Below, one piece after another: positions 3,054-63,136 of a stretch of DNA of 64,000 nucleotides. The position numbers were made by a program, and so were the translations under genes. The first letter of the stretch is position 1, and each line of letters opens with the position of its first letter. Origin of the DNA: Armatimonadota bacterium (GTDB lineage Bacteria > Armatimonadota > HRBIN16). The notes below the pieces were generated by a model. It saw nothing but the letters and a program-made list of their open reading frames with translations, did not search any database and was not told the DNA's origin. The DNA is taken from the NCBI GenBank assembly GCA_049969495.1, contig JBMFOT010000002.1, forward strand, positions 4,406-68,405, in the 5' to 3' direction.

Positions 3054-4085
3054 ATGGCATTCGAGCAATGGGGTATCGGCATCGTTGGTTTAGGCGGCAT
3101 TGCCAATATACACCTGCAAGCCTACCGCAACCTGGGACTAAAGGTGGTGGGTGGTGCAGACATCGACCCCGAACGAGTCAAACTGATGCAGGCGAAATGG
3201 GAACTGTCCATCGCCACCACCGATGTGGAGTCTCTCATCGCCCATCCCGAGGTGAAGATTGTGGATGTGGCGGCGCCGCATTTCCTGCATGTGCGCGAAC
3301 CGATTTTCCGCTCGGCAGCGAAGTACGGCAAAGCGTTGTTCGTGCAGAAACCGCTGGAGCAGTATTATGAGAACGCCAGAAAACTGGTGCGCATTGCCGA
3401 AGAGGCGGGCATCCCGCTGATGGTGAATCAGAACTCGGTATTTGTGCCCGGCTTTCAGGTGATAGAGCGGTACCTACGCGAGGGGACTATTGGCAAGCCG
3501 TACTACTGCCAGATCGAAAACCGCAACTGGATTGACCTGAGCGCGCATCCCTTCTACGGAAAGCAGGAGCGCTGGGTGCTCAGCGACATGGGGGTGCACC
3601 ATCTCGCGCTGGTGGTGCACTGGTTCGGCAGCTGGCAGAGCGCATACGCCATGATGGGGCGCGATCCCTCGCAAAAAGGCATTGTCGGCGACACATGGAA
3701 CGTGATGAACATCCGCTTCGAGAGCGGGACGCAGGCGTGCATCATCAATAACTGGTGCTACCGTGGACATTTGCCACGCCCACATTCTGTGGAGGAGGTG
3801 GTGATTCAGGGGGATCAGGGAGCGATCACAGGCACCAGCGAGGAGGTGGTCATCGTGACTGCCGACCCGCCTGCCGAGATACGCCCACGGTTCGCTGGCA
3901 AATGGTTTCCTGACGCTTTCTCCAACGCCATCTCGCACTATATCCGCTCTCTGGAAGAGGGCAAGCCCTACCTGTGCAGCGGCAGACACAACCTGCAGGT
4001 GGTCGCGCTCATTGAAGCGGGCTACCGCTCGGTGCAGGAAGGACGCGAGGTGACCCGTAAAGAGATAATGGGCGAAGATGCCTGA
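3054..4085 (+). CDS. Gfo/Idh/MocA family NAD(P)-dependent oxidoreductase
   Basis: N-terminal Rossmann motif GIGIVGLGGIANIHLQAY. An AGGAGG Shine-Dalgarno lies 7 nt upstream. It is paired with a downstream ThuA-like gene. Confidence 0.8.
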   Translation: MAFEQWGIGIVGLGGIANIHLQAYRNLGLKVVGGADIDPERVKLMQAKWELSIATTDVESLIAHPEVKIVDVAAPHFLHVREPIFRSAAKYGKALFVQKPLEQYYENARKLVRIAEEAGIPLMVNQNSVFVPGFQVIERYLREGTIGKPYYCQIENRNWIDLSAHPFYGKQERWVLSDMGVHHLALVVHWFGSWQSAYAMMGRDPSQKGIVGDTWNVMNIRFESGTQACIINNWCYRGHLPRPHSVEEVVIQGDQGAITGTSEEVVIVTADPPAEIRPRFAGKWFPDAFSNAISHYIRSLEEGKPYLCSGRHNLQVVALIEAGYRSVQEGREVTRKEIMGEDA

Positions 4086-4111
4086 AAACGGAAGCCATAC
4101 GGAGGAGAAAA

Positions 4112-4861
4112 ATGAGCAAACTGCGTGTTCTGGTATGGGATGAGAACCCGCCTCATGCGCCCAAAGCATTGTACCCGAACAGCATCAACGGCGCAGTGGC
4201 AGAAGGGCTGAAAGAGCTAGACCAAGAGGGGGTGCTGGAGGTGCGCACCGCCAACCTCGACGAACCGGAGCAGGGCTGCCCCGCTGACTTGCTGGCGAAC
4301 ACCGATGTGCTGATGTGGTGGGGGCACGCCCGGCACGGCGAGGTGAAAGACGAACTGGCATCACGCATCGCGGAGCGTGTGCAGCAGGAAGGCATGGGCT
4401 TCATCGCCCTGCACTCGGCACACTATTCCAAGCCGTTCCGAGCGGTGCTGAACTGCACTGGCCACCTGAAAGGCGGTTGGCGCGAACACGAGCCGCCGGA
4501 GGATGAGCACATTCGGGTGTGCGCCCCTTGGCATCCGATTGCCAAAGGCGTGGAGGACTTTGTCTTGAACGGTGAGGAGATGTACGGCGCGCCGTTTGAC
4601 GTGCCGCCGCCGCTGGTGGTGATACTGCAGTCCTACTTCCCGCTGGGCGGCGAGACCTTCCCGTCCGGCTTGTGCTGGACGGTAGGCAAAGGCATAGACC
4701 CGAACTTCACCTCAGGGCCCGGTGGTGGCGTCGGGCAGGGCGAAGGCATCGGGCGTGTGTTCTACTTCCGCCCGGGGCACGAGACCATGCGCACCTATTT
4801 CCATCCCATCGTGCGCCGCATCCTGTACAACGCGGTACTGTGGGTAGGAAAGAGAGTTTAG
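4112..4861 (+). CDS. ThuA-like (trehalose-utilisation / glutamine-amidotransferase-like) protein
   Basis: About 250 aa. Composition and motifs (VLMWWGHARHGEV, ALHSAHYSKPF) fit the ThuA family. A GGAGGAG RBS is present. A ThuA partner next to a Gfo/Idh/MocA dehydrogenase is a common arrangement. Confidence 0.65.
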   Translation: MSKLRVLVWDENPPHAPKALYPNSINGAVAEGLKELDQEGVLEVRTANLDEPEQGCPADLLANTDVLMWWGHARHGEVKDELASRIAERVQQEGMGFIALHSAHYSKPFRAVLNCTGHLKGGWREHEPPEDEHIRVCAPWHPIAKGVEDFVLNGEEMYGAPFDVPPPLVVILQSYFPLGGETFPSGLCWTVGKGIDPNFTSGPGGGVGQGEGIGRVFYFRPGHETMRTYFHPIVRRILYNAVLWVGKRV

Positions 4862-4870
4862 ACCTATCCC

Positions 4871-5005
4871 CCCAACCCCCTTCCCCACAGGGGAAGGGGG
4901 AGCATTGCTCACGCGTATCCCAATTTCGGTAGACTTGCACCCCCCAACCCTCTTCCCCCTAGGGGGAGGGGGGAGCATTGCCCCTCTCCTTGTCGGAGAG
5001 GGGAC
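4871..5005. repeat. Tandem pair of GC-rich hairpin (REP-like) elements plus a third hairpin, between convergent genes
   Basis: The unit CCCCAACCCCCTTCCCCACAGGGGAAGGGGGAGCATTGC is repeated about 72 nt downstream with a few substitutions. Each unit forms a 10-bp stem (CCCCTTCCCC/GGGGAAGGGG). A third hairpin CCCCTCTCC-ttgtc-GGAGAGGGG follows. Together they probably act as a bidirectional terminator for ThuA(+) and GH51(-). Confidence 0.5.
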
Positions 5006-5019
5006 GGCGGTGAGGTTCT

Positions 5020-7422
5020 CTATCTCTCCTTCAGCACTATCACCGTCAACGAATGCCTGGGGAAAATATATCGGAATTGTGGAGCAACCCCGCTCAGCCC
5101 GCGTTCGACCGGCGCAACGCGCATGGGGTTTTCCAGTGAGTTCTCGTCGTCAAGGCTCTCGCTGGTGAGAGTCACCGCTTTGCCTAACGGATGCACCGAG
5201 CGCACACCCTGCAGGCGAATCTCCGTCTCTAGCGCCCTGTCGGAGACGTTCACCACTTTCAGAATCATCTCACGGGTCCGGTGGTTCCGGCTGGCAACGG
5301 CGTAGAGGGCAGGTAGCGGTTTGTCCTCGAAGTCGTGTATCAATTTCTCGTCCAGATAGCATCGGATGCGTGCGCCCTGTACCTCGATGCGGATGTCGTA
5401 CCATCGCCCTGTTTCGATACTGCCGGGCACCTCGTTGCTCACGATGCTCTTGCCGCCGCCAACGCACTTCTCCACAGCGTGTTTGGAGTTGCCCCAACCG
5501 CCGAGGTTCCACCAGTACCAGTTGTTATCGTCGCGCACGCGGAACATAATGAGAAAGCCTTCTGCTCCCCCGATCTTGCGCGCGCGCAGCGTCAGGGTGT
5601 AATCTGCCCAATTGGGGTCGCCCACAACCGCACGGCAATCGGTGGTCAGGCTGTTCTGGCGATAGCTGCCATCCACGACCTGCCAGTCGCCTCGTACCAC
5701 ACGCCAGCCGGCGGTTCCCTGCGCAAAATCGGCGGCAAATAGGGTCTGCCCGTGATGAGTGACCTTCACATCCCGGTACTCTGCTTGTGTCGCCCACGTG
5801 CCCAGCCCGATTGCCCCGCGTGTTTCGGTGACCGCTATGGCAGGTGCATCTACCTTCAAGGGCAGCACGTGTGTGCCACGGTAAACGCTGAACAGCTTCT
5901 GCACGTAATAAGAGGGCGTGCCATACACGCGCGAGCTGTCAAAACCGATCAGGTCGGGGTTCCACTGTCGGGCATTCACGTTCACAAACAAGGGTGCATA
6001 CGCCGCCATAATAACGATATCGCTGTTGCGCTCTATACCCGTCATGAAAGCGGCTTCGGCGATTGCCGCGCGCAGGTTGCCTGTTCCACAGCCCTGAGTG
6101 ACGGCGTACTCGCCGACAAAAATCTTCGGTCCCTTGCGGTCGTAGCGGTCGTAACGGTTCGCTTGTGAGATGAACCACTCGGGGCTGGAGTAGTAGTGCT
6201 CGTCCAGAATGTCCATCGGTCGGCTGCGTACCGGCGAGTTGGCGATAACCTGAATATGGGGAAAGCGCGCCTTGATGGCGTCGTAAAAGCGGGCGTATCG
6301 CTCCTCGTAGGCGGACCCCCAGTTCTCGTTGCCGACCTCCACGAATCGCAAGGGGAAGGGTTTGGGATGTCCGTTTCTCGCCCGCAGCGCGCCCCACTTG
6401 CTGGTAGGCGGCCCAATAGCGTATTCAATGGCAGCGAGCGCGTCCTCGATCCACTCGTCCAGTGTGTCCATCGGCACAACATCGCCGTTACGATACTGGC
6501 ATGCCATCCCGCAGTTGACCACAAGCAGAGGTTCTGCGCCCAGATCCTCGCACATCTGCAGGTACTCGTGCAAGCCCAGTCCCTGCGTGGTGGTATAGCC
6601 CCACACGCACCAGCGCGCCGGGCGTTCGGCGATGTCGCCCAGCGTATTGCGCCAGCGCAGCGCATTGCTCATGCGGTCCCCTTCTACAAAGCAACCGCCC
6701 GGAAAGCGCAGGAAGGAAGGCTTGAGCTCCGCCAGCATCTGCGCAAGGTCTTTACGTAAGCCGTTTGGTCGCCCCTTGAAGGTGTCTACCGGCATCAGTG
6801 AAACCATGTCCAGCCACAACACACCCGGCGACGTTGCCGTGATGACCAGTCGGGCCCGGGCATCGGTCGCGCGAGATGTCAGGGTTGCCACAAACCGTTT
6901 CCATTCCCTACCGATGTTCCGTACCCTGTGCTGGGCATATACCTCACCGTCTGCTGCTTGCAGACTAACCACCAGCTCGCCGCGAAAGCGGTTGTCGCAC
7001 CGCGCATACAGCGACAGCCGGTACCGCTCGCCCTTTTCTATCCCGATGCCCCAGTAGCCCTCGTTGACCAGACTGACTCGCGGCGATCCCTCCCCTATCT
7101 CCCAGCGCAGACTGCGCAGGTTGCGTGCGTTCAGGGGATAGTCGCTGTCTACCGCGATATGCGACTTACCCCTATCGCCCCCGACGAGAGTCCACGCTTG
7201 CGGAACGGGAGCGTCCTCGAAAGAGCGATTGCGCACCAGTTCGGCGTAGATTCCCCCGTCGCCCGCGTGGTTAATCTCCTCGAAGAAGATGCCCCATAGT
7301 ACAGGGCTGATAGGGGTACCCTGTGCAGAAGCATCCACTTCCACTACCGACTTTTGAGCCTGCACGAGAACAGAGGGCAGAATCATGCAGGTCAGGATGA
7401 TGAGGAGTCTAACCAACCGCAC
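5020..7422 (-). CDS. Secreted GH51 alpha-L-arabinofuranosidase with accessory (CBM-like) domains
   Basis: Signal peptide MRLVRLLIILTCMILPSVLVQAQ, with a GTG start and a GGAGGG RBS. GH51 signatures FLRFPGGCFVEG and VEVGNENWG are present. At 800 aa it is longer than a core GH51, so it carries extra N- and C-terminal domains. Confidence 0.75.
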   Translation of the reverse strand: MRLVRLLIILTCMILPSVLVQAQKSVVEVDASAQGTPISPVLWGIFFEEINHAGDGGIYAELVRNRSFEDAPVPQAWTLVGGDRGKSHIAVDSDYPLNARNLRSLRWEIGEGSPRVSLVNEGYWGIGIEKGERYRLSLYARCDNRFRGELVVSLQAADGEVYAQHRVRNIGREWKRFVATLTSRATDARARLVITATSPGVLWLDMVSLMPVDTFKGRPNGLRKDLAQMLAELKPSFLRFPGGCFVEGDRMSNALRWRNTLGDIAERPARWCVWGYTTTQGLGLHEYLQMCEDLGAEPLLVVNCGMACQYRNGDVVPMDTLDEWIEDALAAIEYAIGPPTSKWGALRARNGHPKPFPLRFVEVGNENWGSAYEERYARFYDAIKARFPHIQVIANSPVRSRPMDILDEHYYSSPEWFISQANRYDRYDRKGPKIFVGEYAVTQGCGTGNLRAAIAEAAFMTGIERNSDIVIMAAYAPLFVNVNARQWNPDLIGFDSSRVYGTPSYYVQKLFSVYRGTHVLPLKVDAPAIAVTETRGAIGLGTWATQAEYRDVKVTHHGQTLFAADFAQGTAGWRVVRGDWQVVDGSYRQNSLTTDCRAVVGDPNWADYTLTLRARKIGGAEGFLIMFRVRDDNNWYWWNLGGWGNSKHAVEKCVGGGKSIVSNEVPGSIETGRWYDIRIEVQGARIRCYLDEKLIHDFEDKPLPALYAVASRNHRTREMILKVVNVSDRALETEIRLQGVRSVHPLGKAVTLTSESLDDENSLENPMRVAPVERGLSGVAPQFRYIFPRHSLTVIVLKER

Positions 7423-7641
7423 CGCTATTTCCCTCCCGATCTCGCAATGTATTGTTTCTTCGCTCAGTCTTCTTCTTTGGGTGGCGAATCTCCTGTTGAG
7501 CCAATGGAGCCTGCATCATGTATAGTTAGGAAAGAGACGCTATGAGGTAAAATGGAGATGATAGAAAAGTAACCTATCGCCACCTATCTGCGTCTTAATA
7601 AATGGAAACCTCTATCGCGCGCGACAGGGGAGGTGAGACCA

Positions 7642-8608: not shown

Positions 8609-11068
8609 CTACTCCCCAACCCGCCACTCCAGGATGCCTGCAGAGAACCCTGCTCTGAGCTCTGCCTCAATGCGAATAGCCGTCGTCACCACAGGCGTGA
8701 ACTCCACGCGGTTGAAGGCGTCCCTACGCATCTCGGCACTCTGCACGTTCTGCACAGGATGCCATTGCTGACCGTCAAACCAGAGCACCCGCCACCGCTC
8801 GGGAAGTCGGCACTGCCCTCCTGCCGGCTCGTCGTCGAACCAGTACACCTCGCACCACGAGAGGCGGCGCGGCTTCGCGAAGACGTACTGCACCCATTCT
8901 GTAGTACCGACGTGGTCCCACCAGGTGAAACGGGGGATACTCATGTCGGCGGAAGAGGAGGGAACACGCCCATCATTGAGCGCGAGCACTGTGTCCAGAT
9001 GCCAGCAGTGCGAGGCTTCAGCGTATACCGCATCGGTCTCCTGCCAGACCTTTGCGTCCGGTGCCTCGCTGATTTGAGGAAACGCCGACACCCTCAATCG
9101 GGCACATCCCATCGGAATCAGGGTGATTTGCTCTATCGGCTCGTCCGAGCGCACGGGCGAATCCTGCACCTCGCCAATAAGACCGTTCGCCTCCAGACGC
9201 CACTGCGGGATGCGCTTGCCTTTCGCCTTGAGCAAGACAGGTGCGTTGTCGGCAGTAAACGGCTGCTCGGCGACCTTGCCCGGCTTTTTGACCAGTTCAA
9301 AGGAGCTTTGCGGATTATTCACGTCGACCACTAATCCGTAGTTCCACGCGGTAGTGGGGAAGACCTCGTATGCCGGGAAACGGTCTGTGCCGCCATAGCG
9401 TGCCCACCGCTCACCGATCAGCAAGGAGAACGCCAGCGGTCCGCGATGCACCGAGATGGTATGGCGGTTCTTCTCCCATACCTTCAGGTACAGAGGCATC
9501 GGTAGGGTCAGCTTCACGTGGTCACCGTGACGCCATTCGCGCTGCAAGACAATCCAGCCCTTCGCAGGGGCGGGCACAGCTTGCCTGCGTCCGTTCACTT
9601 CCACCGCTGGCGTCGCGCACCAGCCCGGCACGCGCAATACCAGCGGGAATCGCACCGGTTTCGGGGTGCTGACCGCGAAGGAAATCTCTTCCCCAAAGGG
9701 ATAGTCTGTCTCTTCGCGGATTTCTACCGTCTCTCCGTTGCCCACCTTCGCCTTTACCCGACTGGGCGCATAGAGTACGGCTGCCAGTCCGTTGCCCGCC
9801 GTTGCCATCCACAGGTGCTCGGCAAAGTAGGGCCACCCATGCGAGACGTTGTGCTGGCAACAGCGGTAATCGTAAGGGTTGTAGGAGAGCATATCGCCGG
9901 CGTTCTGCAGCATCGGCGACTTGCTCTGACGGTCCAGCTGCACCATGTTGGGCGCGGTAAGGTAGTGTAGACCTTTCAGGTCAGGCGTCATCGAGGCGGG
10001 CAGCGAGTTGAACGCTACCTCTTCGCAGCGGTCTGCCCACTTCGTGTCGCCCGTGATGCGGGTGAGCAGCTCGTGGCTGTACATCATCTCCACCATCGAG
10101 CAGGTCTCTGCCGCCTGTCGGGGACCGGTGAAGCCGGGGCGAGCGTTCTCATCCGCGCCAAACATACCGCCCGGCACCTGTCCGTAGATGCCCATCACCG
10201 TGTCGTACACCCGCTCGGTGGCTTTCAGGTAGCGGATGTCTGCTGTTTGCTGGTAGTACTGTGCCGGTTCGCGGAAGCCCTGGCTGATGTTGACGCCGTG
10301 CCAGGTGGGGATGTTGCCTGTCCAGTCGGCAGTGCGTTCGTGTGTGACGCGCGCAGCATCCAGCAGCCACTTTTCGCCCGTCAGGTTGTACAGCCAGTGG
10401 ATGGAGTCCAGATTATCACCGCCGCGAAACTTCTGCCAGCTGCCCGGCAGGAACTTCTCCAGCGGTATGGTCATCTGCCAGCGGAAATATTTGAGCATAA
10501 AAGGGATGACCCGTTTATCGCCGGTAGCCTCGTAGTGGGTGCGCAGAGCGTAAAGGGCTATCATGTTGGGCCAGAGGTCCATCTCCTTCAGGTTGCTTTC
10601 AGGACCAAAGTAACCGTCCTCACGCTGGCTGGCAAGGATGGCGTCTATCCACCTCCTCGATTCGGCGATAATACGTTCCTCACCCAGTAGGTAACCCAGC
10701 GAGGTGAATCCCTTCAGCCAGTAGGGGAGCTCTTCCCAACCACGTTCGCCCTCGCCTTTCGGGTGCGCCCATGCACTACCTTCCCATCGGCACCAGGGGC
10801 TGATTTCGGTGAGGCGACCGGTGAAGCCCTCCGCCATCAGCTCCAGCTGGTGACGCAGCCAGCCCTCCGGGCGGATAGAGCCGGTAGGCAGCTTGATGAG
10901 CGGACTGGGCAGCAAAGGGGCACGGTTGCCCGCGTAATATCGGTTTGCAGGAGCGGTTGGAGGTGTTGCTACCACTTTCATTGTTGTTTCCCTCGTGTGA
11001 GAAATGGTTTGGGCGTATGTGAGTACAGCCTGGTGTGCGACTAACAACGTCAGAAGCCACGCTTTCAT
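8609..11068 (-). CDS. Secreted GH127/GH146-like (DUF1680) beta-L-arabinofuranosidase-like hydrolase with C-terminal discoidin-like domain
   Basis: Signal peptide MKAWLLTLLVAHQAVLTYAQ. An E-x-C motif (AAETCSMVEMM) and a CC pair (YDYRCCQHN) sit about 77 residues apart. This matches the Zn-binding Glu/Cys and Cys-Cys catalytic arrangement of GH127 HypBA1. The C-terminal ...GFSAGILEWRVGE resembles an F5/8 type C domain. Confidence 0.65.
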   Translation of the reverse strand: MKAWLLTLLVAHQAVLTYAQTISHTRETTMKVVATPPTAPANRYYAGNRAPLLPSPLIKLPTGSIRPEGWLRHQLELMAEGFTGRLTEISPWCRWEGSAWAHPKGEGERGWEELPYWLKGFTSLGYLLGEERIIAESRRWIDAILASQREDGYFGPESNLKEMDLWPNMIALYALRTHYEATGDKRVIPFMLKYFRWQMTIPLEKFLPGSWQKFRGGDNLDSIHWLYNLTGEKWLLDAARVTHERTADWTGNIPTWHGVNISQGFREPAQYYQQTADIRYLKATERVYDTVMGIYGQVPGGMFGADENARPGFTGPRQAAETCSMVEMMYSHELLTRITGDTKWADRCEEVAFNSLPASMTPDLKGLHYLTAPNMVQLDRQSKSPMLQNAGDMLSYNPYDYRCCQHNVSHGWPYFAEHLWMATAGNGLAAVLYAPSRVKAKVGNGETVEIREETDYPFGEEISFAVSTPKPVRFPLVLRVPGWCATPAVEVNGRRQAVPAPAKGWIVLQREWRHGDHVKLTLPMPLYLKVWEKNRHTISVHRGPLAFSLLIGERWARYGGTDRFPAYEVFPTTAWNYGLVVDVNNPQSSFELVKKPGKVAEQPFTADNAPVLLKAKGKRIPQWRLEANGLIGEVQDSPVRSDEPIEQITLIPMGCARLRVSAFPQISEAPDAKVWQETDAVYAEASHCWHLDTVLALNDGRVPSSSADMSIPRFTWWDHVGTTEWVQYVFAKPRRLSWCEVYWFDDEPAGGQCRLPERWRVLWFDGQQWHPVQNVQSAEMRRDAFNRVEFTPVVTTAIRIEAELRAGFSAGILEWRVGE

Positions 11069-13513: not shown

Positions 13514-16366
13514 ATGCCTGTAGAGTTCGCACGCCCGTGGATGTTGCTCTTGCTGGCGATGTTGCCCGCTTTCTGGTGGGTACACCGGCACAGCCTTGCC
13601 GCTCTGCCCCGCTGGCAGAAGCAGGCTTCGCTGTGGCTGCGTTTGCTGCTGGTGACGCTGGTGGTGTTCGCCCTGGCGGGAATCCGCTGGGTACGCACCA
13701 CCACCGCGCAGGCGGTGTTCTTCGTGGTAGATGGCAGCGCGAGCGTGGAGCCGCAGCAACGCGAAACCGCTCTGCAGTTCATCCAGGAGGCAGTGCGCCA
13801 TATCCGCGAGGACGACATGGCGGGCGTCATCATCTTCGGTAGCGACCCGCAGGTGGTCACTCCGCTGAGCTCGCGCCCCGACCTCAGCCGAATACCTGCC
13901 AGCAACTCGCCGGAAATGACCGACATTGGGCGTGCCATCAGCCTCGCGCTTGCCACCTTCCCCGAAAACGCAGGCAAGCAGATTGTGCTCTTCTCCGACG
14001 GCAACGCCAACGCGGGTGACACGGTGGCGCAGGCGTTGCAGGCAGCGAGCCGCGGCGTGAAGATACATGTAGTTCCCTTCCCGCGAGAGGTGCGCACCGA
14101 GGCGCTGGTGGAACGGGTACAGGCTCCCACGCTGGTTAAAGAGGGCGAGCCGTTCGACCTGCGCTTATGGATACAGTCCACCCACGCACAATCGGCGGAG
14201 ATGACCCTGCTGCGAGACGGACAGCCCGTCAAGACGCAGGCGGTAGCGCTCAAGCCGGGCAAGAATCTGGTGCGTCTGACACACCGCGAGGATGTTGCAG
14301 GGCAGTACCGCTACCAGGTGTCGCTGCTGGCTTCCGTCGATACCTATCCCCAGAACAACCGCGGCGCAGGCTATGTGCGCGTGCAGGGCACTCCCCGCGT
14401 GCTGTACGTCACCGGTAGCGGAAAGCCCACGCCGTTGTCCACCGCCGCACAGTCACAGCGCATCCGCGTGGAGGTGGTCAATCCGCAGGGCATGAAAACA
14501 CAGCCGGCGCAGTTGCAGGCGTACGATGCGGTGATTCTGCACAACGTGCCTGCCTACGAACTGGGCATCCCCGCCATGCGAGCCCTGCAAACCGCCACGC
14601 GCGAGCTGGGTGTGGGGCTGGGTATGGTGGGTGGCGAGGACAGCTTTGGTGCAGGCGGCTACTTTGAAACGCCTGTGGAGGAGACCCTGCCCGTGTCGAT
14701 GGACGTGCGCAAGTACCACTCGTTCCCCAGCGTGGGCATCGTGCTGGTGGTGGACGATTCGGGCAGTATGGCGATGCCGGAAGGCGGAACCACCAAAATG
14801 GAGCTGGCAAACCGCGCCGCGGCGACGGTGGTGCGCTTTCTGACAGCGCAGGACGAGGTAGGCGTTATCGCCGCCGGCTCCGACTGCCGCGCGGTGGTGC
14901 CGATGTGGCGTGTGGGCGAGAAGAAGGAGCAGATTCTGCGTGCCATTGCCGCCTTTCAGCCCGGTGGAGGGGGCATCTACGTGCGCCCGGGCATGGAAGC
15001 GGGGGCGAAGCTGCTGCAGGTGAGCCGGGCTAAACTGAAGCACATGATTGTGCTGGCGGACGGCGACGACTGCGATGACCAGGAAGGTGCCATACCGCTG
15101 GCAGCCAAGCTGCGTCAGGCGGGAATCACCGTCACCGTCGTCTGCTTCGGGCACGGCAAGGACGAAGCGTTCCTGCAGCAGCTGGCGAAGGCTGGGGGCG
15201 GACGCTACTACTTCACCGACCGCATGGCGAACCTGCCCCAGATTTTCACCAAAGAGGCGATGATAGCCAGCAAAGCGCAGTATATCGAGGAGCCGTTCTT
15301 CGTGCGCTATACCGGCGATGAAATCGTTTCGGGCTTGGATTGGGAGAGCTCTCCCCCCTTGCTGGGCTACAACACCACCACCGCCAAGCCGGGGGCGCAG
15401 GTAGGCTTGCTCTCCCATAAAGACGACCCCATCTTCGCGGTGTGGCAGTACGGGGTGGGGCGCAGTATGGCGTTCACCTCGGACGGACGGGCGAAGTGGT
15501 GCGCGCAGTGGGTGAAATGGGCAGGGTTTCCCGCTTTCGCCGCGCGCACCATGCGCACCATCCTGCGCAGCCTGCCCGCCGAAGACCTGCGCACGCAGGT
15601 AAGCATCTCGGGCGGTAAAGGATACGTGAGCGTAGACCTCCTGCGCCAGCCTGCGACCGCAAACGCCAGCGCGCTTTCGCCAGCTGCCAAACTGCTCCTC
15701 CCAACCGGCCAGGTGGTTCCACTGGTGCTCTCGCAGACGGGAGCCACCCGCTACGAAGCCGCGTTTGACGCGCGGGGCTACGGAACCTACGTGGTTGCCG
15801 TGCAGTATCGCCACCCCAACGGCACAATAGCGCTCAGCACCGGCACAGACACCGTAGCCTACTCACCCGAATACCGTGACTTGAAGAGCAACAGAGCACT
15901 TCTGGAACAGGTTGCGCGTCTCACCGGCGGGAAGCAACAGCCGTCGCCGCAGGACATCTTTGGCGCTCAGCGTGCCCCGGTGCGGGTGCCGTCGGAAGCG
16001 AGCATCCCCCTGCTGTTTGTGGTGCTGTTCTTGTTGCCGGTGGACGTTGCGCTGAGGCGCATCGTGTGGCAGATGGAAGCACTTCCCGAGTGGCAACAAA
16101 CATGGGCTCGTGTGTTGGCGCGTCTCCATTTGAGGCACAGGGTGACTTCTACTGCTCCCGCAACTTCACGGCTTCTGCAGCGCAAAGAGCGTCTGCGCGA
16201 GAAGTATGCCCCCACCGGAACAACCCCGCCATCATCGCCATCCGAGGAGCCGGCGGTGTCCACAGAGCCGACATCCGCTCGCCCTGCCGCTCCACAACCT
16301 TCCACCTCTGGCGAACAAATCGGCAGGTTGCTGGATGCAAAGAAGCGGGCGCACAAGAGAGAATAA
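13514..16366 (+). CDS. BatA-like membrane protein with two von Willebrand factor A domains and Pro-rich C-terminus (950 aa)
   Basis: The N-terminal TM pair plus VFFVVDGSASV (VWA MIDAS motif) is BatA-like. A second VWA domain (IVLVVDDSGSM) follows. There is a C-terminal TM segment (IPLLFVVLFLLPV) and a Pro/Ser-rich tail. Confidence 0.6.
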   Translation: MPVEFARPWMLLLLAMLPAFWWVHRHSLAALPRWQKQASLWLRLLLVTLVVFALAGIRWVRTTTAQAVFFVVDGSASVEPQQRETALQFIQEAVRHIREDDMAGVIIFGSDPQVVTPLSSRPDLSRIPASNSPEMTDIGRAISLALATFPENAGKQIVLFSDGNANAGDTVAQALQAASRGVKIHVVPFPREVRTEALVERVQAPTLVKEGEPFDLRLWIQSTHAQSAEMTLLRDGQPVKTQAVALKPGKNLVRLTHREDVAGQYRYQVSLLASVDTYPQNNRGAGYVRVQGTPRVLYVTGSGKPTPLSTAAQSQRIRVEVVNPQGMKTQPAQLQAYDAVILHNVPAYELGIPAMRALQTATRELGVGLGMVGGEDSFGAGGYFETPVEETLPVSMDVRKYHSFPSVGIVLVVDDSGSMAMPEGGTTKMELANRAAATVVRFLTAQDEVGVIAAGSDCRAVVPMWRVGEKKEQILRAIAAFQPGGGGIYVRPGMEAGAKLLQVSRAKLKHMIVLADGDDCDDQEGAIPLAAKLRQAGITVTVVCFGHGKDEAFLQQLAKAGGGRYYFTDRMANLPQIFTKEAMIASKAQYIEEPFFVRYTGDEIVSGLDWESSPPLLGYNTTTAKPGAQVGLLSHKDDPIFAVWQYGVGRSMAFTSDGRAKWCAQWVKWAGFPAFAARTMRTILRSLPAEDLRTQVSISGGKGYVSVDLLRQPATANASALSPAAKLLLPTGQVVPLVLSQTGATRYEAAFDARGYGTYVVAVQYRHPNGTIALSTGTDTVAYSPEYRDLKSNRALLEQVARLTGGKQQPSPQDIFGAQRAPVRVPSEASIPLLFVVLFLLPVDVALRRIVWQMEALPEWQQTWARVLARLHLRHRVTSTAPATSRLLQRKERLREKYAPTGTTPPSSPSEEPAVSTEPTSARPAAPQPSTSGEQIGRLLDAKKRAHKRE

Positions 16367-16372
16367 TAAAAA

Positions 16373-16403
16373 CCCCTCTCCCCGCAGTGCGGGAGAGGGG
16401 ACA
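16373..16403 (-). terminator. Rho-independent terminator for the 16416..17363 gene (bidirectional position)
   Basis: A 12-bp stem CCCCTCTCCCGC/GCGGGAGAGGGG with a 3-nt loop. On the minus strand it is followed by TTTTTATTATT. Confidence 0.65.
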
Positions 16404-16415
16404 CACGGTGAAGCA

Positions 16416-17363
16416 CTACCTGTATTCGCCTGCTACGAGCAGCTGGGCAACGTTACGGCACGTATCGGGGTCAGGCTGACGGCAGTTGTAGATGTTGTTG
16501 TCGTAGCCGTCGAACGGGAAGGTGCGCTCGCCAGGACGGCGGAAGCAGGTCCACTTCCAGAGATTGTTGGCGATGGCGCCCTGAATGCGTGTCCACTTCA
16601 CGTGCCCATCCGCAAACACGAAATGGACGCCCTTCAGGTGATTGACCAACCAGCCATACTGGCGTACTTTGCCATCCAGGCAGGGCGAGCCTGGAGCAGG
16701 CACATCTCCGCCAAATGGGTCACCTGGTGGGTTGCACCAGCAGCGTGCCAGAGCCCACGGACCGGTGTCCGGCTCGTAGTTCTTGCCGTCCTGCATCCAG
16801 ATGGTCTCCGCGGGCACATCGAGGTCAGCCAGCTTTCTGGGAGGATCCGCGTAGCCGGATTGATAGGCAGCAAGGTTGAAAACGGCGCCGTTGACCGTGT
16901 AACCACGCGGGAACCACAGATTTTGACTGCGAGGAACGTCGCACAGCGGATCACTGCGCAGCCAAGGCGAGCTCGGATGGCAGTGTGCCCAAGTCTCATC
17001 CATTGGTGAACCACGCCACGCATTGACGTTGTCGCCCAGCATCCGGGAGATTTGCGCCTTCGCATTGGGGCACTCATAGACCGGGAGGTTCTTGACGTAC
17101 GGAAAGATGCCGTACTTCCAGTTCGACCACGTCGCCCCGCCGTTACCGATGAACCGATTGTAGGGGAATGTCTCGTCGTAGTCCTGCACATACATCATCA
17201 CTCCCGTGCCCACCTGTTTGAGGTTGCTTAGGCAGGATGCTTGTCGCGCCTTCTCGCGCGCTTGGGCGAACACAGGGAACAGGATCGCCGCCAGTATCGC
17301 GATAATCGCGATGACCACCAGCAGCTCAATGAGCGTAAAGCCGCGCTTCATGACTGTACGCAC
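16416..17363 (-). CDS. DUF1559 protein with prepilin-type N-terminal cleavage/methylation domain (pseudopilin-like)
   Basis: The N-terminus [46 protein letters not shown] is the class III signal/pilin motif. The C-terminal [10 protein letters not shown] fits the DUF1559 H-X9-DG region. Confidence 0.8.
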
Positions 17364-17491
17364 CTCCCATCGGTGATTTTGCCCGGTAAGTTAAGGGCAT
17401 AACTTGTTTTTATTATAGAAAAATCCTTGAACGCTTGTCAATGCTTTCCGCTGGGTTGAGCTCAAAAATCGTCGAAAAATAGGTATTTCTC

Positions 17492-17818
17492 TCATAGCAC
17501 AGAAGGGAAGTTCACTGTACCAGTCATAGCACATACCCGTGAATAGGCTGGCTGACGATACCGGTATGAACAAGGGACAGACAGACGCCGCTTCCTTCCT
17601 CAGAAAGCCAGCGATGGGAATGGTGAGTTACTCTTGGATATAGTGACTATTATCAGATTTTTGTTGTCTCTACATGGTATCAAAAGAGGATCTTGCTTTT
17701 TGCTTTCCATTTTCACCGATTTTTCCCAAAACCCCGCACAAAAGGGGAAAAACCCCTTGACAAACGGCTTAACATCGTGTAGAGTATAAGCAATGGGATT
17801 ATCATAGCAGTCATAGCA
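17492..17818. promoter_or_regulatory. Four copies of the motif TCATAGCA in the divergent promoter region (candidate operator sites), plus a sigma70-like promoter TTGACA-17-TAGAGT at about 17757..17785
   Basis: CTCATAGCAC is at about 17491 and GTCATAGCAC at about 17523, near the minus-strand DUF1559 gene start. A tandem ATCATAGCAGTCATAGCAA is at 17802-17818, between the predicted TSS and the regulator's GTG start. Confidence 0.4.
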
Positions 17819-17833
17819 AAGGACTGAGAGAAA

Positions 17834-18940
17834 GTGATACCGTTGCATCTGAACTCGCGTTTGCGCACACCGCTCTACGTGCAAATCGTGGAGCAAGTGG
17901 AAGCAGCGGTCAGCTCGGGGCAGTTGACGCCGGGCACGCCGCTGTGGTCTGCTCGCGCCATCGCCCGACACTACGGCATCAGCTACCAGACCGCCGAGCG
18001 AGCGTTGACCCTGCTGGCGCGACGGGGGGTGGTGGAACGGACTCGACGGGGAACCATCATCGCCGCCAGCCGTCCGAAACAGCCGGTGCAACAGCACCTG
18101 GTTGCCCTCATCTACACGTGGCAGATACCGGGCGCACGTCCCTCCTACTCGGTGGGCGAGATGCGCATGTTGCATGCCGCCGCAGAGGAGTGCGCCCGGC
18201 ATCTATGGGGAAGCCTGCTACTCCATTTCCCCGATAAAAGCGCGTCCGCCAGCTACCTGCAGGAATGGGAACGGCATCACCGTTTCGACGCCGCGCTGGT
18301 GTTCGGCCCCCTGCACGACGAGGGGTTATTGTGGATGCAGCGAAGGGGGTACCCGGTGGTGGTCATTGATGCCGAGCCCGAGGTTCCGGTTCCCCGCGTG
18401 GTGCAGGCGAACCGTGAAGGCACCTATCTGGCGGTACGTGAGCTGATTCGGCTGGGACATCGACGCATCGGCTTCTTCACCGGTCACTATATGCCGCATT
18501 ATGCCCAGCGATTTGAAGGCTACATGCAGGCACTGCAAGAAGCGGGCATCACCCCCGAGGCAAATTGGGTGATGCAGCACGGTCAGCCTCGTCCTACCGT
18601 CCAGGAGGCGTTGAAGCGGCTGCTGGAAGTGCGTCCACCCCTGACGGCTATCGTGGGAGCGTCGGACATCCTGCTGGCGTTCGCCTATCCCGCGATTACG
18701 GAGATGAACGTGCGGGTGCCGGAAGAGCTCTCGCTCATCGGTTTCGATGACGAGCCTTTCTGCACCACCATGCAGCCGCCTCTATCGTCGGTGCGCGTCG
18801 ACCTCGAGCAACTGGCGCGCACGGGTGTGCGCCTGCTGATGGATATGATGGAAGGCAAACCGGTTCCACAGCGGGTAGAGATACCTGCTCAGGTGGTGCT
18901 GCGCGATTCGTGCGCACCGCCACACTCGCAGACGACTTGA
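17834..18940 (+). CDS. Transcriptional regulator with N-terminal GntR-type wHTH and C-terminal LacI/GalR-type periplasmic-binding-fold domain (AraR-like architecture)
   Basis: GTG start. The HTH segment is ARAIARHYGISYQTAERALTLLARRGVVER. The C-terminal part (LIGFDDEPFCTTMQPPLSSVRVDLEQL) resembles a LacI-family sugar-binding domain. Confidence 0.65.
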   Translation: MIPLHLNSRLRTPLYVQIVEQVEAAVSSGQLTPGTPLWSARAIARHYGISYQTAERALTLLARRGVVERTRRGTIIAASRPKQPVQQHLVALIYTWQIPGARPSYSVGEMRMLHAAAEECARHLWGSLLLHFPDKSASASYLQEWERHHRFDAALVFGPLHDEGLLWMQRRGYPVVVIDAEPEVPVPRVVQANREGTYLAVRELIRLGHRRIGFFTGHYMPHYAQRFEGYMQALQEAGITPEANWVMQHGQPRPTVQEALKRLLEVRPPLTAIVGASDILLAFAYPAITEMNVRVPEELSLIGFDDEPFCTTMQPPLSSVRVDLEQLARTGVRLLMDMMEGKPVPQRVEIPAQVVLRDSCAPPHSQTT

Positions 18941-18970
18941 CAACCTGAAAACGAGAAGGAGGGTCTCACG

Positions 18971-19681
18971 ATGAAATCACGTCGCGGTTTTACGCTGATT
19001 GAGCTGTTGGTTGTTATCGCGATTATCGCGATACTGGCAGCGATCCTGTTCCCGGTCTTTGCACAGGCCCGGGAGAAGGCGCGGCAAACTTCGTGCTTGT
19101 CCAACATGAAGCAGATCGGTACTGCAGCGCGGATGTACGTGGAAGATTATGATGGCATGTCCATTTGGGATACGTACTGGCAGTTCACCCATTTCCCCAA
19201 CACATGGTCTGGGTTTATTCTGCCATACGTGAAGAATGAGGACATTTTCCGTTGTCCCAGTCATGCGGTACCGCGCAAGCCGTGGAACACCGACCCCTAC
19301 GATTGGGTACCTGAGTGGTACTACAAGAGCTACGGGATCAACGTCTACGGTGCGGTGATCTACATAAAACCGGACAATACCGTTAGCGAGTTCATGCTCG
19401 ACCTCATCAAACGTCCGGCGGAGCGCATCTGGTTCTTTGAGGTGTACGATGCGGACGATAACGACCAAGGATTGGGCTACAACGCCACTTGGGGACCCAG
19501 TCACTGGGCATTTCGTCATACAGACGGAATGAACGTTACATTCATAGATACCCATGCTAAGTATGTGACACGAAAGACGCTAGAAGGGTGGTGGAACGAT
19601 CGCTCACGCAACCCATGTACCGGGCGCTACCTGTACATCTACTATCCCTGGTCATCGGACAACTCGTGTCCAGGGCTGTAG
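18971..19681 (+). CDS. DUF1559 protein with prepilin-type N-terminal methylation domain
   Basis: [61 protein letters not shown] is present. It starts 30 nt after the regulator's stop, so it is probably co-transcribed. Confidence 0.8.
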
Positions 19682-19690
19682 GAGAAGACC

Positions 19691-19867
19691 ATGAACAGGA
19701 AGATAAGCCCAGTATGGCTCTTGGTAGCCATCGTAGCGATAGTGGCTGGTTTCTTAGTGCTATTTCTCAAGTCTGGGGTGACACCACCGCCCCAAACGAG
19801 TGAAAGCAAGCTAAAGAGCCACTATCCAGCGCCAAAGGTACCTCCTTTGGAAGCACCGCCGCGTTAA
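19691..19867 (+). CDS. Small (58 aa) single-TM membrane protein (not in ORF track, below length cutoff)
   Basis: A GGAGAAG RBS is 3 nt after the preceding stop. The sequence is MNRKISPVWLLVAIVAIVAGFLVLFLKSGVTPPPQTSESKLKSHYPAPKVPPLEAPPR. A GC hairpin follows at about 19876-19903. Confidence 0.35.
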   Translation: MNRKISPVWLLVAIVAIVAGFLVLFLKSGVTPPPQTSESKLKSHYPAPKVPPLEAPPR

Positions 19868-19910
19868 CTAGTCAGAAGGGGGGAGGGTCATACCTCCCCC
19901 CCAACGTTGA

Positions 19911-20312
19911 TTAAGGGCGTATAAACATACCAGAGTGGTAGGTAAAGCGTCTACCATCAGCTATGGTGACGATAAAGGTGTAGCCGTATTTGGCGCCTTG
20001 ACTCAAAAATGCTGAGTATGGGAGTTGGGTTGTATAGATTTCCCAGTATGTGGTTTCAAGAGCTGTGGTACCCTGTGCTACTCTATAGTATGGCATAGGT
20101 ATGCCTGCGTCTTCTGACCAGTGTCCTATCCATAATTCCCAACCACGTATCTGCTCGCCCGGAACGGAGGGCATTGCACGAGCAATGATTACATCAGGAA
20201 GCGTTCCGTATGGGCGGCTTGCACTGAAAAATATATCGTAAGCGTAGGCAAATCTGCACGAAAAGGTCAGGATGACTAAGATTAGAATCAGCAACAAAGT
20301 TGCTCTTCTCAT
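19911..20312 (-). CDS. Small secreted hypothetical protein in a low-GC islet
   Basis: Signal peptide MRRATLLLILILVILTFSCRFAYA. A GGAGGT RBS is present. Local GC is about 47%, against about 63% in the flanks. Confidence 0.5.
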   Translation of the reverse strand: MRRATLLLILILVILTFSCRFAYAYDIFFSASRPYGTLPDVIIARAMPSVPGEQIRGWELWIGHWSEDAGIPMPYYRVAQGTTALETTYWEIYTTQLPYSAFLSQGAKYGYTFIVTIADGRRFTYHSGMFIRP

Positions 20313-20489
20313 TGTTTACCTCCATTTGCAAGGATTAACAAACGGCAAGATATAAGGTAACAGATGTTTGTAGACAAGTCAAGAATATTGGGGGGAGGGT
20401 GTTCGATAATTGTTGAGAAGTTGGATGCAGCGCAAGTACGAGGAGAGGGAAGGGCGGCTCTGACACCGCCCTTGCCGTGCTTTTGCGCC

Positions 20490-20518
20490 TCGACAAGGCA
20501 GGGAGGGATGTGTATAAT
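20490..20518 (+). promoter_or_regulatory. Sigma70-type promoter TCGACA-17-TATAAT upstream of the substrate-binding protein gene
   Basis: A perfect -10 TATAAT at about 20513-20518, with a 17-nt spacer and a -35 TCGACA. This leaves a leader of about 55 nt to the ATG at 20579. Confidence 0.55.
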
Positions 20519-44752: not shown

Positions 44753-45502
44753 TCAATCGCGGGTGAAGTGAGCGTCGGTCATCTGCGTCTGGCTCATCGG
44801 CTTCACGTGCCCGTCGCAGAAGACGATGTTCGCGAACCCGCGATGTTTTACCACTTGGTTACCGGTGTCCACGTCCTTACGGTTATCGATGTGACGGAAA
44901 TCCACCGTGGGGTTACCCCACCACATGGAGGGCGGGTCAATGTAGGGTGTTTCCCACATGGTGCCGTCGCCACCGTACCAGGGCACATTGTAGAAACCAC
45001 TGTCGGCGAACATCACCTTTTCCGCAGGACGTGAGAGCGCGGATTCGGAGGCAGGGTTGCGCAGGTTGGGCCAAGTGCTCCAGTTGAAGGTGATGTAGAT
45101 GTCCGAGCCGATATAACCCCAGTTGTAACCGTAGCCGTTACCGTCGCCAAAGCGGGTGCGTCCACCCCAGCTGGGACAGCGTTGAATCTGCCCGTTTTTC
45201 ATGTAGGGGTAGAGCAAGCTCTGCGTTTTGTCCCACACGCCTGCCTGCGTTTCCTTGCCGAACCAGCACTGTCGCAGAGAACCACTGTAGGCGTACTGGG
45301 CAATGGGGTAGGTCTCGTCGTAGTCCTGGAGGTACATCAGCGTTGCCAGACCCAGCTGCTTCAGGTTGCTCTGGCAGCTCGCCTGACGGGCTTTCTCGCG
45401 TGCCTGCGCGAAAACAGGGAACAGAATCGCTGCCAGTATCGCGATAATCGCGATAACTACCAGCAGCTCAATCAGCGTGAAAGCGTTGCGTTGGCGGAAC
45501 AT
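44753..45502 (-). CDS. DUF1559 protein with prepilin-type N-terminal methylation domain
   Basis: The start is at the internal Met ([49 protein letters not shown]), which has an AAGGAGGG RBS. Confidence 0.8.
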
Positions 45503-45939
45503 ACTTCCCTCCTTACCAAAAAATTCACCGCTCACGACGCGCGGAGGGAAACGTCGGAAGCGGTGTGTGCTTTCGGCGCGTCAATAAAAAACCTGATGCC
45601 CTTCCGCACCAGGTTGGTTGAAACGCGCCCGATTCACCTTCGGGTCACGTCCCCCTCCCTCCGCGAAGGGGGCCCTGCGATGTGCAGGGCGTGACCAGCC
45701 GTCGCCGGGCATTCGGGCTTATCTCCCCGTGTGGGAGACACACCGCAGCGGGCCTGCGCCGGATTCTCACCGGACTTCCCCCGATATTTCAGCCCCGATG
45801 CGATCGGGGCGCAGACGGCTCACCCTTATGTGATTTGGTAATACTATATCACAGCCGCGCGGGGCTGTCAAGCGTTTTCGCAGCGACTTTGGAGATTTTT
45901 TGTACCCGGCGAGGAAAACTGCTTGCACCGAGGCGAAAC

Positions 45940-46995
45940 ATGAAAGGGAGTAAAGGGGTAGTAGGTAGTGTTGAGATGAGCTTTCCACTGACAGTAGAAG
46001 CGTTGGAGCGTGTCGAGAAGACCCTGCGCGTTCCGAACAGCCCGATGTATCGCGAGAGGCTGTCCGGGGCAAGCCTGCCGTACGCTACCCTGTGGCCGCT
46101 CAGCATGTATCACTCCGCCCTGATTACGGCGGCGGAGTATGACCCCAAACGCTACTTGCACGCGCTCAAGCGGCTACAGCAAACCCTGCTTGCCTACTGG
46201 GATGACAGGCATCAACCGCCGGGATTCGACGCCTACCCGAAGGGCAACGATAAGTACTACGACGATAACGCCTGGATGGCGTTGAACTACCTGCGATTGT
46301 ATATCTTGACGCGCGAGAGGGAATGGCTGTGCTGGGCGCAGGATGTACACCGCTTCGTATGGAGCGGCTGGGATGAGCAACTGGACGGTGGTATCTATTG
46401 GCATCAGAGCCGAAAAAGCAAAAACACCTGCTCTAACGCACCTGCGCTGGTATCTGCTTTATGGCTCTATTCGCTCACGCGCGCTGAGGAGTACCTGGAG
46501 CAAGCAAAGCGAATACATACGTGGCTAAGCGCGCATCTCCAGGACCCGGAAGACGGGTTGTTCTGGGACAGTGTTCAGATGGATGGGCGAGTAGACCGCA
46601 CCAAGTTCGCTTACAACAGCGCACTGATGATTCAGGCGAACCTGTGGTGGTACCGAATCACCCGGCGCGAAGAGTACCTTCGCGAGGCGATTCGTCTGGC
46701 GCGTGTGTCGGAGAAGACGTGGTTCGGCTGGCGTAGCAGAGCGTTAGAAGGTTACGCACCTTTCGTGGTCAAGCTATGTGAGGCGTATCGGCAGCTGGCA
46801 GCGGTCACCGGAGATAGCCGGTGGGCAGTGCTGGTGGAGCGCACGGTGAAGTTCGTGAAAACACTTCGCTCACCGGAAGGAGACTATCCTGATGACTGGT
46901 ACGCGGAAGGGAAGCGGGAGCCGGTTACCAGCTTGATGGCGCTTGCCTCAGCCGCCTGTTTATTCGGGCTGGCAGCTGAGCGGCATACCTCTTAA
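45940..46995 (+). CDS. GH76-like (alpha-1,6-mannanase family) glycoside hydrolase, cytoplasmic or start uncertain
   Basis: YYDDNAWMALNYLRLY (GH76 DD catalytic pair context) and GGIYWHQS (GGxxW motif) are present. There is no signal peptide. An alternative start is at 45976 (MSFPL). Confidence 0.5.
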   Translation: MKGSKGVVGSVEMSFPLTVEALERVEKTLRVPNSPMYRERLSGASLPYATLWPLSMYHSALITAAEYDPKRYLHALKRLQQTLLAYWDDRHQPPGFDAYPKGNDKYYDDNAWMALNYLRLYILTREREWLCWAQDVHRFVWSGWDEQLDGGIYWHQSRKSKNTCSNAPALVSALWLYSLTRAEEYLEQAKRIHTWLSAHLQDPEDGLFWDSVQMDGRVDRTKFAYNSALMIQANLWWYRITRREEYLREAIRLARVSEKTWFGWRSRALEGYAPFVVKLCEAYRQLAAVTGDSRWAVLVERTVKFVKTLRSPEGDYPDDWYAEGKREPVTSLMALASAACLFGLAAERHTS

Positions 46996-62542: not shown

Positions 62543-63136
62543 ATGAACCGCCGGACAATCGCTTTTACGCTGGTGGAGCTGCTCGTCGTGATTGCTATCA
62601 TCACGCTACTGGCGGCGATACTGTTCCCTGTGTTCGCGCAGGTGCGAGCGAACGCCCGACGCGCCTTGTGCATGAGCCAGCTGCGCCAGATAGGGATGGC
62701 GGCACGCATGTACCTGCAGGATTACGATGCCCTCCCACCCCGATTGAGCGCACTGTATCCCGCGTACCAGCCCTCCACGCCGCTGTTCATCTGCCCATCC
62801 GACTCGCAGAAGGGGCAACATCCGGGTAACCCGCGCCTCGAGGGCAACCTATACCTGCTGACGGGGGTCAGCTACGACTACATTCCCAATTGGGGCATTG
62901 CGCACGAACTGGGCTGGTGGCAGCCGTTCCCCAACTACGGCGAGGGCAAATGGGGCGAGCAGACCCCGCTGGTGGACTGCAACTGGCACTGGGCGACCTT
63001 CTTCAAGCTGGAGAACCGCCGCGACACCCCGCCGTCGGGTGCGGGGGGGTGGGTACTGGTGCTGTTACAGTCTGGCACGGTGAAGCCGGTGCATCTATCG
63101 TTGTACCCCGACAAGTTCAGCCCAGATGGGTCGTAG
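62543..63136 (+). CDS. DUF1559 protein with prepilin-type N-terminal methylation domain
   Basis: [49 protein letters not shown]. An AGGAG RBS is present. Confidence 0.8.

Follow-up and report, generated by a model that had tools for sequence, protein, structure and literature searches.

Regulators that join a GntR-type winged helix–turn–helix (wHTH) to a GalR/LacI-type domain are defined, in passages of PMC4494728, as the AraR subfamily of the GntR family, and AraR of Bacillus subtilis is described there with this chimeric architecture. AraR is an autoregulated repressor that has more than one operator in each control region. Repression is cooperative, via paired operators, and the sites are palindromes with a GT...AC core. 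Here we analyse a regulator gene of the same architecture in a 64-kb stretch of DNA (hereafter, the window) from a metagenome-assembled genome (MAG) of an uncultured hot-spring member of the Armatimonadota. The gene lies between two genes for DUF1559 prepilin-like proteins (16416–19681), the upstream one of which is transcribed divergently, and the intergenic region in front of it contains four copies of the 8-bp motif TCATAGCA, as a proximal tandem and a distal pair. The locus is probably a self-contained, negatively autoregulated operon of three genes, which encode a ligand-sensing repressor, a DUF1559 pilin-like protein and a membrane protein of 58 amino acids (aa). Unlike AraR, the regulator is associated with direct repeats of 8 bp rather than with the AraR palindrome, and its conserved target is a pilin-like gene instead of arabinose catabolism. 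Direct-repeat operators in a 2+2 layout, together with a pilin-like target, would be a new variation on the AraR architecture.

Direct-repeat operators have precedents elsewhere in the GntR family, among the FarR, NagQ and MocR types and in NanR (passages of PMC4494728; PMC8012715). NanR of Escherichia coli, a member of the FadR subfamily, resembles the present case in the short direct repeats, with an 8–9-bp period, that lie over its promoter, and several NanR dimers bind cooperatively (PMC8012715). It differs in its FadR-type helical effector domain and in the 32-residue N-terminal extension that serves cooperativity (PMC8012715), whereas in the regulator described here the sensor is of the LacI type and the wHTH is preceded by no more than about 13 residues. 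NanR also has three adjacent repeats and no distal pair. The closest sensor domain is found in the LacI/GalR family (LacI, PurR and GalR), for which ligand-induced loss of operator binding would be expected. LacI and GalR form loops via auxiliary operators. The window regulator is unlike these proteins in having neither a LacI-type HTH nor a tetramerisation helix, and its sites are not palindromic. We know of no protein with the AraR-type architecture that recognizes direct repeats. On the side of the target, the counterparts are the type IV pilins and the pseudopilins of type II secretion (PilA, GspG/EpsG), from which the window protein differs by its membership of the DUF1559/H-X9-DG family of paralogues, with no assembly machinery encoded alongside; it is also larger than GspG. 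A single genome of Armatimonadota or Planctomycetes encodes tens to hundreds of prepilin-like proteins of the DUF1559/H-X9-DG family.

The gap between the divergent gene and the regulator gene (17364–17833) spans 470 bp and is rich in AT (42.8% GC compared with 60.1% for the window). All four exact copies of TCATAGCA in the 64 kb lie in this gap, at 17492, 17524, 17802 and 17811, and all are on the + strand. The two proximal copies form the tandem TCATAGCA-g-TCATAGCA (17802–17818, +), which has a 9-bp period and is proposed as the main operator. A promoter scan placed a sigma-70-type promoter of the regulator operon, TTGACA-17-TAGAGT, at 17757–17785 (+; 10 of 12 positions), and the tandem therefore falls 3′ of the expected transcription start and 5′ of the GTG with which the regulator gene begins, at roughly positions +10 to +27 of the predicted RNA; it starts 16 nt after the −10 and ends 16 nt ahead of the GTG. 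An earlier note on this DNA had reported the AT-richer gap with its four copies and the promoter, and had seen in the tandem a classic autoregulatory operator position. All of this held on re-analysis, and the element is conserved across related loci. The two distal copies, both of the form TCATAGCA(C) and both exact matches (17492–17499 and 17524–17531, +), are 32 bp or about three helical turns apart, and the second is 278 bp upstream of the tandem. When the gap was simulated 50,000 times with a first-order Markov model, a non-low-complexity 8-mer reached four non-overlapping copies with a frequency of 4 × 10−5; a less refined test, in which low-complexity words were admitted, gave 0.004. 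The whole-window count is not extreme by itself, as four copies were reached in 9 of 100 shuffles. There was no sign of degenerate sites, with 25 one-mismatch matches in the window compared with 37.6 expected by chance.

For comparison we used 17 related loci (L001–L005, L086–L090, L156, L160, L214–L217 and, from Fimbriimonas ginsengisoli, L213), which were recovered via homologues of the regulator and via the cluster of the downstream DUF1559 protein. Close relatives are ‘bacterium HR16’ and hot-spring MAGs of Armatimonadota/Chthonomonadetes, and the regulator homologues in metagenomes share 85–94% identity with the window protein, with one more at 42%. A separate scan of a genome collection with two peptide patterns yielded no close relative of the regulator among the 80 matches listed; the patterns were too generic, and the matches are ordinary LacI-family proteins of at most 30% identity. 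The window regulator itself had no exact match in the collection searched.

In every locus with an orthologous regulator the tandem recurs as TCATAGCA-(g/a)-TCATAGC(A/T), directly 3′ of TTGACA-17-TA(T/G)AGT. It is kept even in orthologues of 42–45% identity (as TCATAGCAaTCATAGCt in L004 and TCATAGCAgTCATAGCt in L214), the upstream regions of which have little in common with the window beyond the promoter hexamers and the CATAGC sites; in these two loci the tandem begins 4 nt after the −10. The distal pair is present in 10 of 11 close orthologous loci and missing in L003. Its two sites are 32 bp apart (31 bp in L001), and it stands 217, 249, 253, 268 or 278–279 bp from the tandem. All sites in the window lineage are direct repeats on the same strand; in the distant L004 one distal copy is inverted. 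When seven loci were aligned, the only invariant intergenic blocks were the distal sites, the −35 element, the −10/+1 region and the tandem, and 30 of 32 motif columns were invariant compared with 49 of 354 other intergenic columns (P = 4 × 10−21, Fisher test). Across 205 kb of non-redundant DNA from 11 loci that carry the regulator, the roughly 370 bp in front of the regulator gene contain 34 of 34 exact copies, and the remaining DNA has none. Over 35 sites the consensus reads (A/G)TCATAGCA, and the distal sites tend to be followed by C. Fimbriimonas (L213) has an orthologue of the pilin-like gene, no such regulator and no copy of TCATAGCA. On the strength of these alignments and counts we regard the motif as almost certainly a functional, conserved cis-element that travels together with the regulator.

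A metagenome scan for TCATAGCAGTCATAGCA gave no additional regulon sites among the listed matches: 78 of the 80 are chance or coding-repeat occurrences in unrelated DNA, and the remaining two, L156 and L160, are orthologous promoters. The control regions have some further features of their own. Just upstream of the regulator −35, at 17727–17756, there are phased A-tracts and a short stem (CCCC...GGGG) that varies among loci, apparently in a compensatory manner (CCGT/ACGG, CTCG/CGAG); this segment might act as an UP element or as bent DNA, or else form a small hairpin. Upstream of the 45%-identity regulator in L214, at about 4330–4560, are unrelated tandem direct repeats (ggtgtccgcgtaggcgga twice, gtgtcgcaagg twice and ccctggcagt three times), and the second operator repeat of that locus forms a perfect palindrome, TCATAGCTATGA.

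The regulator gene (17834–18940, +; 368 aa, GTG start) encodes an N-terminal GntR-type wHTH (PF00392, E = 1.1 × 10−12, residues 14–73) and a C-terminal sensor that resembles LacI/GalR-type periplasmic binding proteins (PF13377, Peripla_BP_3, E = 7 × 10−36; PF00532, Peripla_BP_1, E = 8 × 10−17). Pfam found no LacI-type HTH (PF00356), which generic LacI homologues do have; the GntR wHTH takes its place. A LacI-like C-terminal tetramerisation helix was likewise not found in the protein. The start codon, ATG or GTG, is at a conserved position across loci. By its domain architecture the protein is assigned to the AraR subfamily of the GntR family, and the AraR domain arrangement named in the earlier note stands. 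Orthology does not, because both domains are nearer to other solved proteins than to AraR of B. subtilis: in comparisons with the Protein Data Bank, the wHTH matches YvoA/NagR (E = 4 × 10−11) ahead of the AraR wHTH (4egy, E = 6 × 10−4), and the sensor matches LacI/PurR (E = 1 × 10−33 to 1 × 10−22) ahead of the AraR sensor (3tb6, E = 2.8 × 10−13), which ranks behind about 40 LacI-family chains. Direct repeats in place of a palindrome point the same way. The window regulator and the orthologues of 42–45% identity have one and the same recognition helix, SYQTAERAL. Paralogues of 24–27% identity have a different helix, and the repeats at the corresponding place in their promoters are other ones and palindromic (TAATACCGGTATTA in L091; ATGTACaataaGTACAT in L092). 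Judging from the family of the sensor domain, the ligand is most likely a sugar. Genes for GH51-like and GH127 arabinofuranosidases lie 6–12 kb upstream in the window; they have no TCATAGCA and are not conserved neighbours in the other loci.

The downstream DUF1559 prepilin-like gene (18971–19681, +; 236 aa) starts 30 nt after the regulator gene and begins with a class III signal peptide, MKSRRG|FTLIELL. The placement of a GntR/LacI-type regulator between two DUF1559 genes, with this short gap to the second, had been read correctly in the earlier note and agrees with Pfam and the coordinates. Both flanking proteins match N_methyl (PF07963, E = 3 × 10−10 and 2 × 10−8), TIGR02532 and DUF1559/SBP_bac_10 (Pfam and NCBIfam), and both start with a hydrophobic helix and carry G|F-x-x-x-E as the site for prepilin peptidase. 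The downstream protein carries H-x9-D-T, a variant of the H-X9-DG motif, and does not match the TIGR04294 model. A structure predicted from a 73-sequence alignment (predicted local distance difference test (pLDDT) 79, predicted template modelling score (pTM) 0.79) consists of a 50-residue N-terminal helix and a small beta-sheet head, and indicates that the protein is pilin-like and does not have a solute-binding fold, despite its Pfam name. The DUF1559 family is very large, with at least 8,000 matches in a homology search.

A prepilin-like gene follows the regulator gene in every related locus (at least 12 examined), at an offset of −4 to +93 nt. The identity of this cargo differs behind regulators that are 86–96% identical: three types, of 236, 232 and 252 aa, share 42–52% identity with one another (window 18971–19681 compared with L002 7633–8331, L003 2573–3271 and 3728–4486, and L160). 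From these comparisons, the cargo gene appears either to have been swapped or to evolve much faster than its regulator. Ten nucleotides after the DUF1559 stop codon, with a GGAG ribosome-binding site, begins a small open reading frame (ORF) of 58 aa (19691–19867, +) that is the probable third gene of the operon. Its product has a basic N terminus, one transmembrane helix and a proline-rich tail, and had no Pfam match. Similar small genes of 53–65 aa occur 3′ of DUF1559 genes in L088 (10721–10894), L003 (3288–3485 and 4506–4667, one behind each of two DUF1559 genes), L004 (12083–12262), L214 (6886–7083) and L213 (6973–7149); the small protein may be an unrecognised partner of this DUF1559 subgroup. 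Between the operon and a convergent gene (19911–20312) lies a GC-rich hairpin with a 9-bp stem, GGGGGGAGG/CCTCCCCCC, and a 6-nt loop (19878–19901), which was read directly from the sequence and is the probable end of the operon; its function is inferred because the terminator scan, which depends on a T-run, did not detect it. So delimited, the predicted regulated unit runs from the promoter and its operators through the regulator and pilin-like genes to the gene for the small membrane protein, and this order of the three genes is conserved.

The convergent gene itself (19911–20312, −) is an ORF of 133 aa with a signal-peptide-like N terminus and without a Pfam or NCBIfam match. Its third-position GC content is 0.45 compared with about 0.7 for its neighbours, and genes of 130–131 aa occupy the same position in L086, L088 and L090.

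The mechanism that we consider probable is as follows. The regulator, presumably a dimer via its LacI-type core, would bind the TCATAGCA direct repeats; occupation of the tandem, at or just downstream of the transcription start, would block RNA polymerase, so that the operon represses itself. The 32-bp spacing would put both distal sites on one face of the helix, suggesting cooperative binding or looping, and the distal pair may in this way add affinity, although this is the most speculative step. A small-molecule ligand would lower the affinity for DNA, whereupon all three products of the operon would be induced at once. After cleavage at G|FTLIE by prepilin peptidase, the pilin-like protein would enter a type IV filament or an assembly of the type II secretion kind.

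Several points weigh against this account. The sites are ascribed to the regulator by co-occurrence and position only, and co-transcription is deduced from spacing and synteny. It is unusual for a symmetric dimer of the LacI type to have direct repeats as its sites. The distance between the distal pair and the tandem is not phase-locked, which supports looping no more than it opposes it; the complete absence of the distal pair from L003 also has to be accommodated, and, with no tetramerisation helix, there is no evident route by which distal and proximal complexes would touch. The exclusivity of the motif pertains to 205 kb of loci, and further regulon members may exist elsewhere.

The earlier note had assigned the distal copies to the divergent DUF1559 gene, near which it placed them, and had proposed a regulator with an operator for both flanking genes. 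On such a scheme, the proximal pair would serve the regulator and the downstream gene and the distal pair the divergent gene. The distal sites are indeed 51–90 bp upstream of the −35 of the divergent promoter in the window, the three-gene arrangement recurs in L003, L086–L088 and L156, and among GntR-family regulators a lone site within a divergent gap is frequently shared by the genes on either side (passages of PMC4494728). However, the sites are 129–168 bp from the start codon of the divergent gene, upstream of its −35, a position that fits activation better than repression, and their distance from the divergent promoter is not conserved. An orthologue of the divergent gene is present upstream of the regulator in L003, L086–L088 and L156 and absent from L001, L002, L004, L089 and L214, in which the upstream neighbours are GH20 (L001), LacI (L002), a BcrAD-type gene (L089), metK (L004) and a PGI-like gene (L214). 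The distal pair is nonetheless retained in L001, L002 and L089, beside these unrelated neighbours, and is missing from L003 despite the divergent gene; it is therefore part of the control region of the regulator. The divergent gene also has an invariant leader block of its own, without TCATAGCA. We consider joint control of both flanking genes unlikely: the downstream gene accompanies the regulator in at least 12 loci, and the divergent gene is probably outside the regulated unit and most likely under separate control.

Assignment of the motif to another protein has to be considered as well. Some other transcription factor, such as a carbon-source regulator of broader scope, might bind TCATAGCA and have the GntR/LacI-type protein merely as a target; the evidence that links the protein to the motif is not direct, and direct repeats are atypical for LacI-core dimers. 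This is quite improbable, given that the 205 kb from 11 loci contain no TCATAGCA outside the upstream region of the regulator, that the motif accompanies the regulator in orthologues of as little as 42% identity, in which the recognition helix is unchanged, that both are absent in Fimbriimonas, and that paralogous regulator–pilin cassettes have different repeats at the same position. Alternatively, the proximal tandem might act as RNA, as an element of the 5′ untranslated region that affects translation or stability, as it is transcribed in the window lineage, abuts a ribosome-binding site (AAGGA at 17820) and belongs to a leader that folds at −18.4 kcal/mol. The folding z-score, however, is only −1.9, with 11 of 200 shuffles folding equally well, and this idea was dropped as the leader is not significantly structured. 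A scan of 16000–20500 gave no Rfam match, TCATAGCA also recurs upstream of the promoter, with one distal copy inverted in L004, and part of the tandem is untranscribed in L004 and L214, in which it starts 4 nt after the −10. An RNA element is accordingly a very remote prospect. As for chance or neutral duplication without function, the shuffled whole-window counts given above are the one point in its favour. The clustering of four copies in one 470-bp gap (P of about 4 × 10−5), and their standing as invariant islands in otherwise diverged intergenic DNA, already refute it, and we give it virtually no credence. Self-repression by the regulator through the TCATAGCA sites is the account that we retain.

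The divergent DUF1559/H-X9-DG prepilin-like gene (16416–17351, −; 311 aa) lies in an ORF that extends to 17363, with the likely true start at an ATG at 17351 and the sequence MKRG|FTLIELL; its H-x9-D-G motif matches TIGR04294 (E = 4 × 10−5, residues 242–257). Its promoter, TTGACA-18-TATAAT (17412–17441, −), agrees at 12 of 12 positions. Just downstream is the invariant 13-nt leader block AGTTATGCCCTTA (17392–17404, −), which is found at the same position in L003, L086–L088 and L156, followed by GGGC(A/G)AAATCAC. Without any relation to TCATAGCA, this block may serve as an operator in its own right or form a hairpin in the leader. For the divergent gene, a terminator scan identified an intrinsic terminator with a 10-bp stem and a T-run at 16373–16400 (−). 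Enrichment of the motif near other DUF1559 genes, which the earlier note proposed to look for, was not supported: neither the regulator nor TCATAGCA accompanies the two others in the window (44753–45502, −, and 62543–63136, +), and TCATAGCA is absent from the extra DUF1559 genes in L002, L003 and L214 and from the Fimbriimonas orthologue.

Other parts of the window contain genes of carbohydrate metabolism. Upstream of the GH51-like alpha-L-arabinofuranosidase gene (5020–7422, −), the gap at 7423–7632 has three GATAG(G/A)GT-type repeats, especially at about 7570–7620 (−), which are a different candidate operator. A lone TCATAGCG in the same gap, at 7538, was judged to be due to chance. The GH127 beta-L-arabinofuranosidase gene is at 8609–11068. 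The DUF1559 gene at 44753–45502 (−) is divergent from a gene for a GH76-family glycoside hydrolase at about 45940–46995 (+), a further case (44753–46995) of a pilin-like gene that adjoins a gene for a carbohydrate-active enzyme.

Three unrelated sugar-sensor regulators are also located directly 5′ of a prepilin-like gene, each with operator-like repeats of its own (L002, L091 and L092). The L002 locus has a second regulator–pilin cassette 600 bp from its TCATAGCA cassette, in which a regulator with a LacI-type HTH (4928–5923, −) precedes a DUF1559 gene (3957–4856, −) and three GTAAACGATTAAC-like repeats are found upstream of the regulator, at about 5940–5985. On the same metagenomic contig, a cas4–cas1–cas2 adaptation module (350–2336) lies 1.6 kb from this DUF1559/LacI cassette. 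In L091 (5001–6801) and L092 (5001–6875), GntR/LacI hybrids with 24–27% identity to the window regulator are followed by a prepilin-like gene 16–38 nt later and then by large secreted or carbohydrate-binding proteins; the palindrome TAATACCGGTATTA is at the −10 in L091, together with a third GGTATTA, and ATGTACaataaGTACAT is at the −10 in L092. The 80 listed ordinary LacI-family loci, which come from other phyla, served as a negative control, and no prepilin gene lies within 4 kb in any of them. The pairing thus recurs with three further unrelated regulators, and this suggests that dedicated sensor regulators have repeatedly been combined with pilin-like genes of their own. In Fimbriimonas ginsengisoli (CP007139, 2056083–2068901; L213), the closest Fimbriimonas relative of the downstream pilin-like gene (44% identity) is divergent from a gene for an AraC-family regulator with a sugar-binding cupin domain, which takes the place of the GntR/LacI hybrid.

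A more tentative extension, doubtful at present, is that sensor-regulator and pilin-like cassettes are general, and that each paralogue and its small proline-rich partner form a substrate-specific module under a ligand-sensing repressor of their own. Four independent regulator lineages, the turnover of the cargo, the AraC-family neighbour in Fimbriimonas and the secreted or carbohydrate-binding proteins in L091 and L092 favour it. If it were true, the cell would re-equip a type IV filament or a type II secretion-like apparatus to capture a given glycan, take it up or secrete enzymes for it, which would explain the massive expansion of DUF1559 proteins in the Armatimonadota and the Planctomycetes–Verrucomicrobia–Chlamydiae (PVC) group. 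Fimbriimonas has 79 PulG-like genes, an expansion that has been noted without a link to regulators (PMC4072686). The function of a paralogue could then be read from the ligand of its regulator, and pilin-like paralogues could be annotated at scale. In a full-text literature search DUF1559 was mentioned in only four papers, and to go by titles and abstracts none of them deals with its regulation or function.

With its promoter, 17-bp operator, ligand-sensing repressor, pilin-like gene and small partner gene, the locus would be a compact, transplantable unit. It would add a direct-repeat operator with a 2+2 proximal and distal layout to the AraR-type regulators, whose known sites are palindromes. 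Identification of the repressor's ligand would show under which condition the pilin-like protein is made, and would provide a first functional clue for the DUF1559 family.

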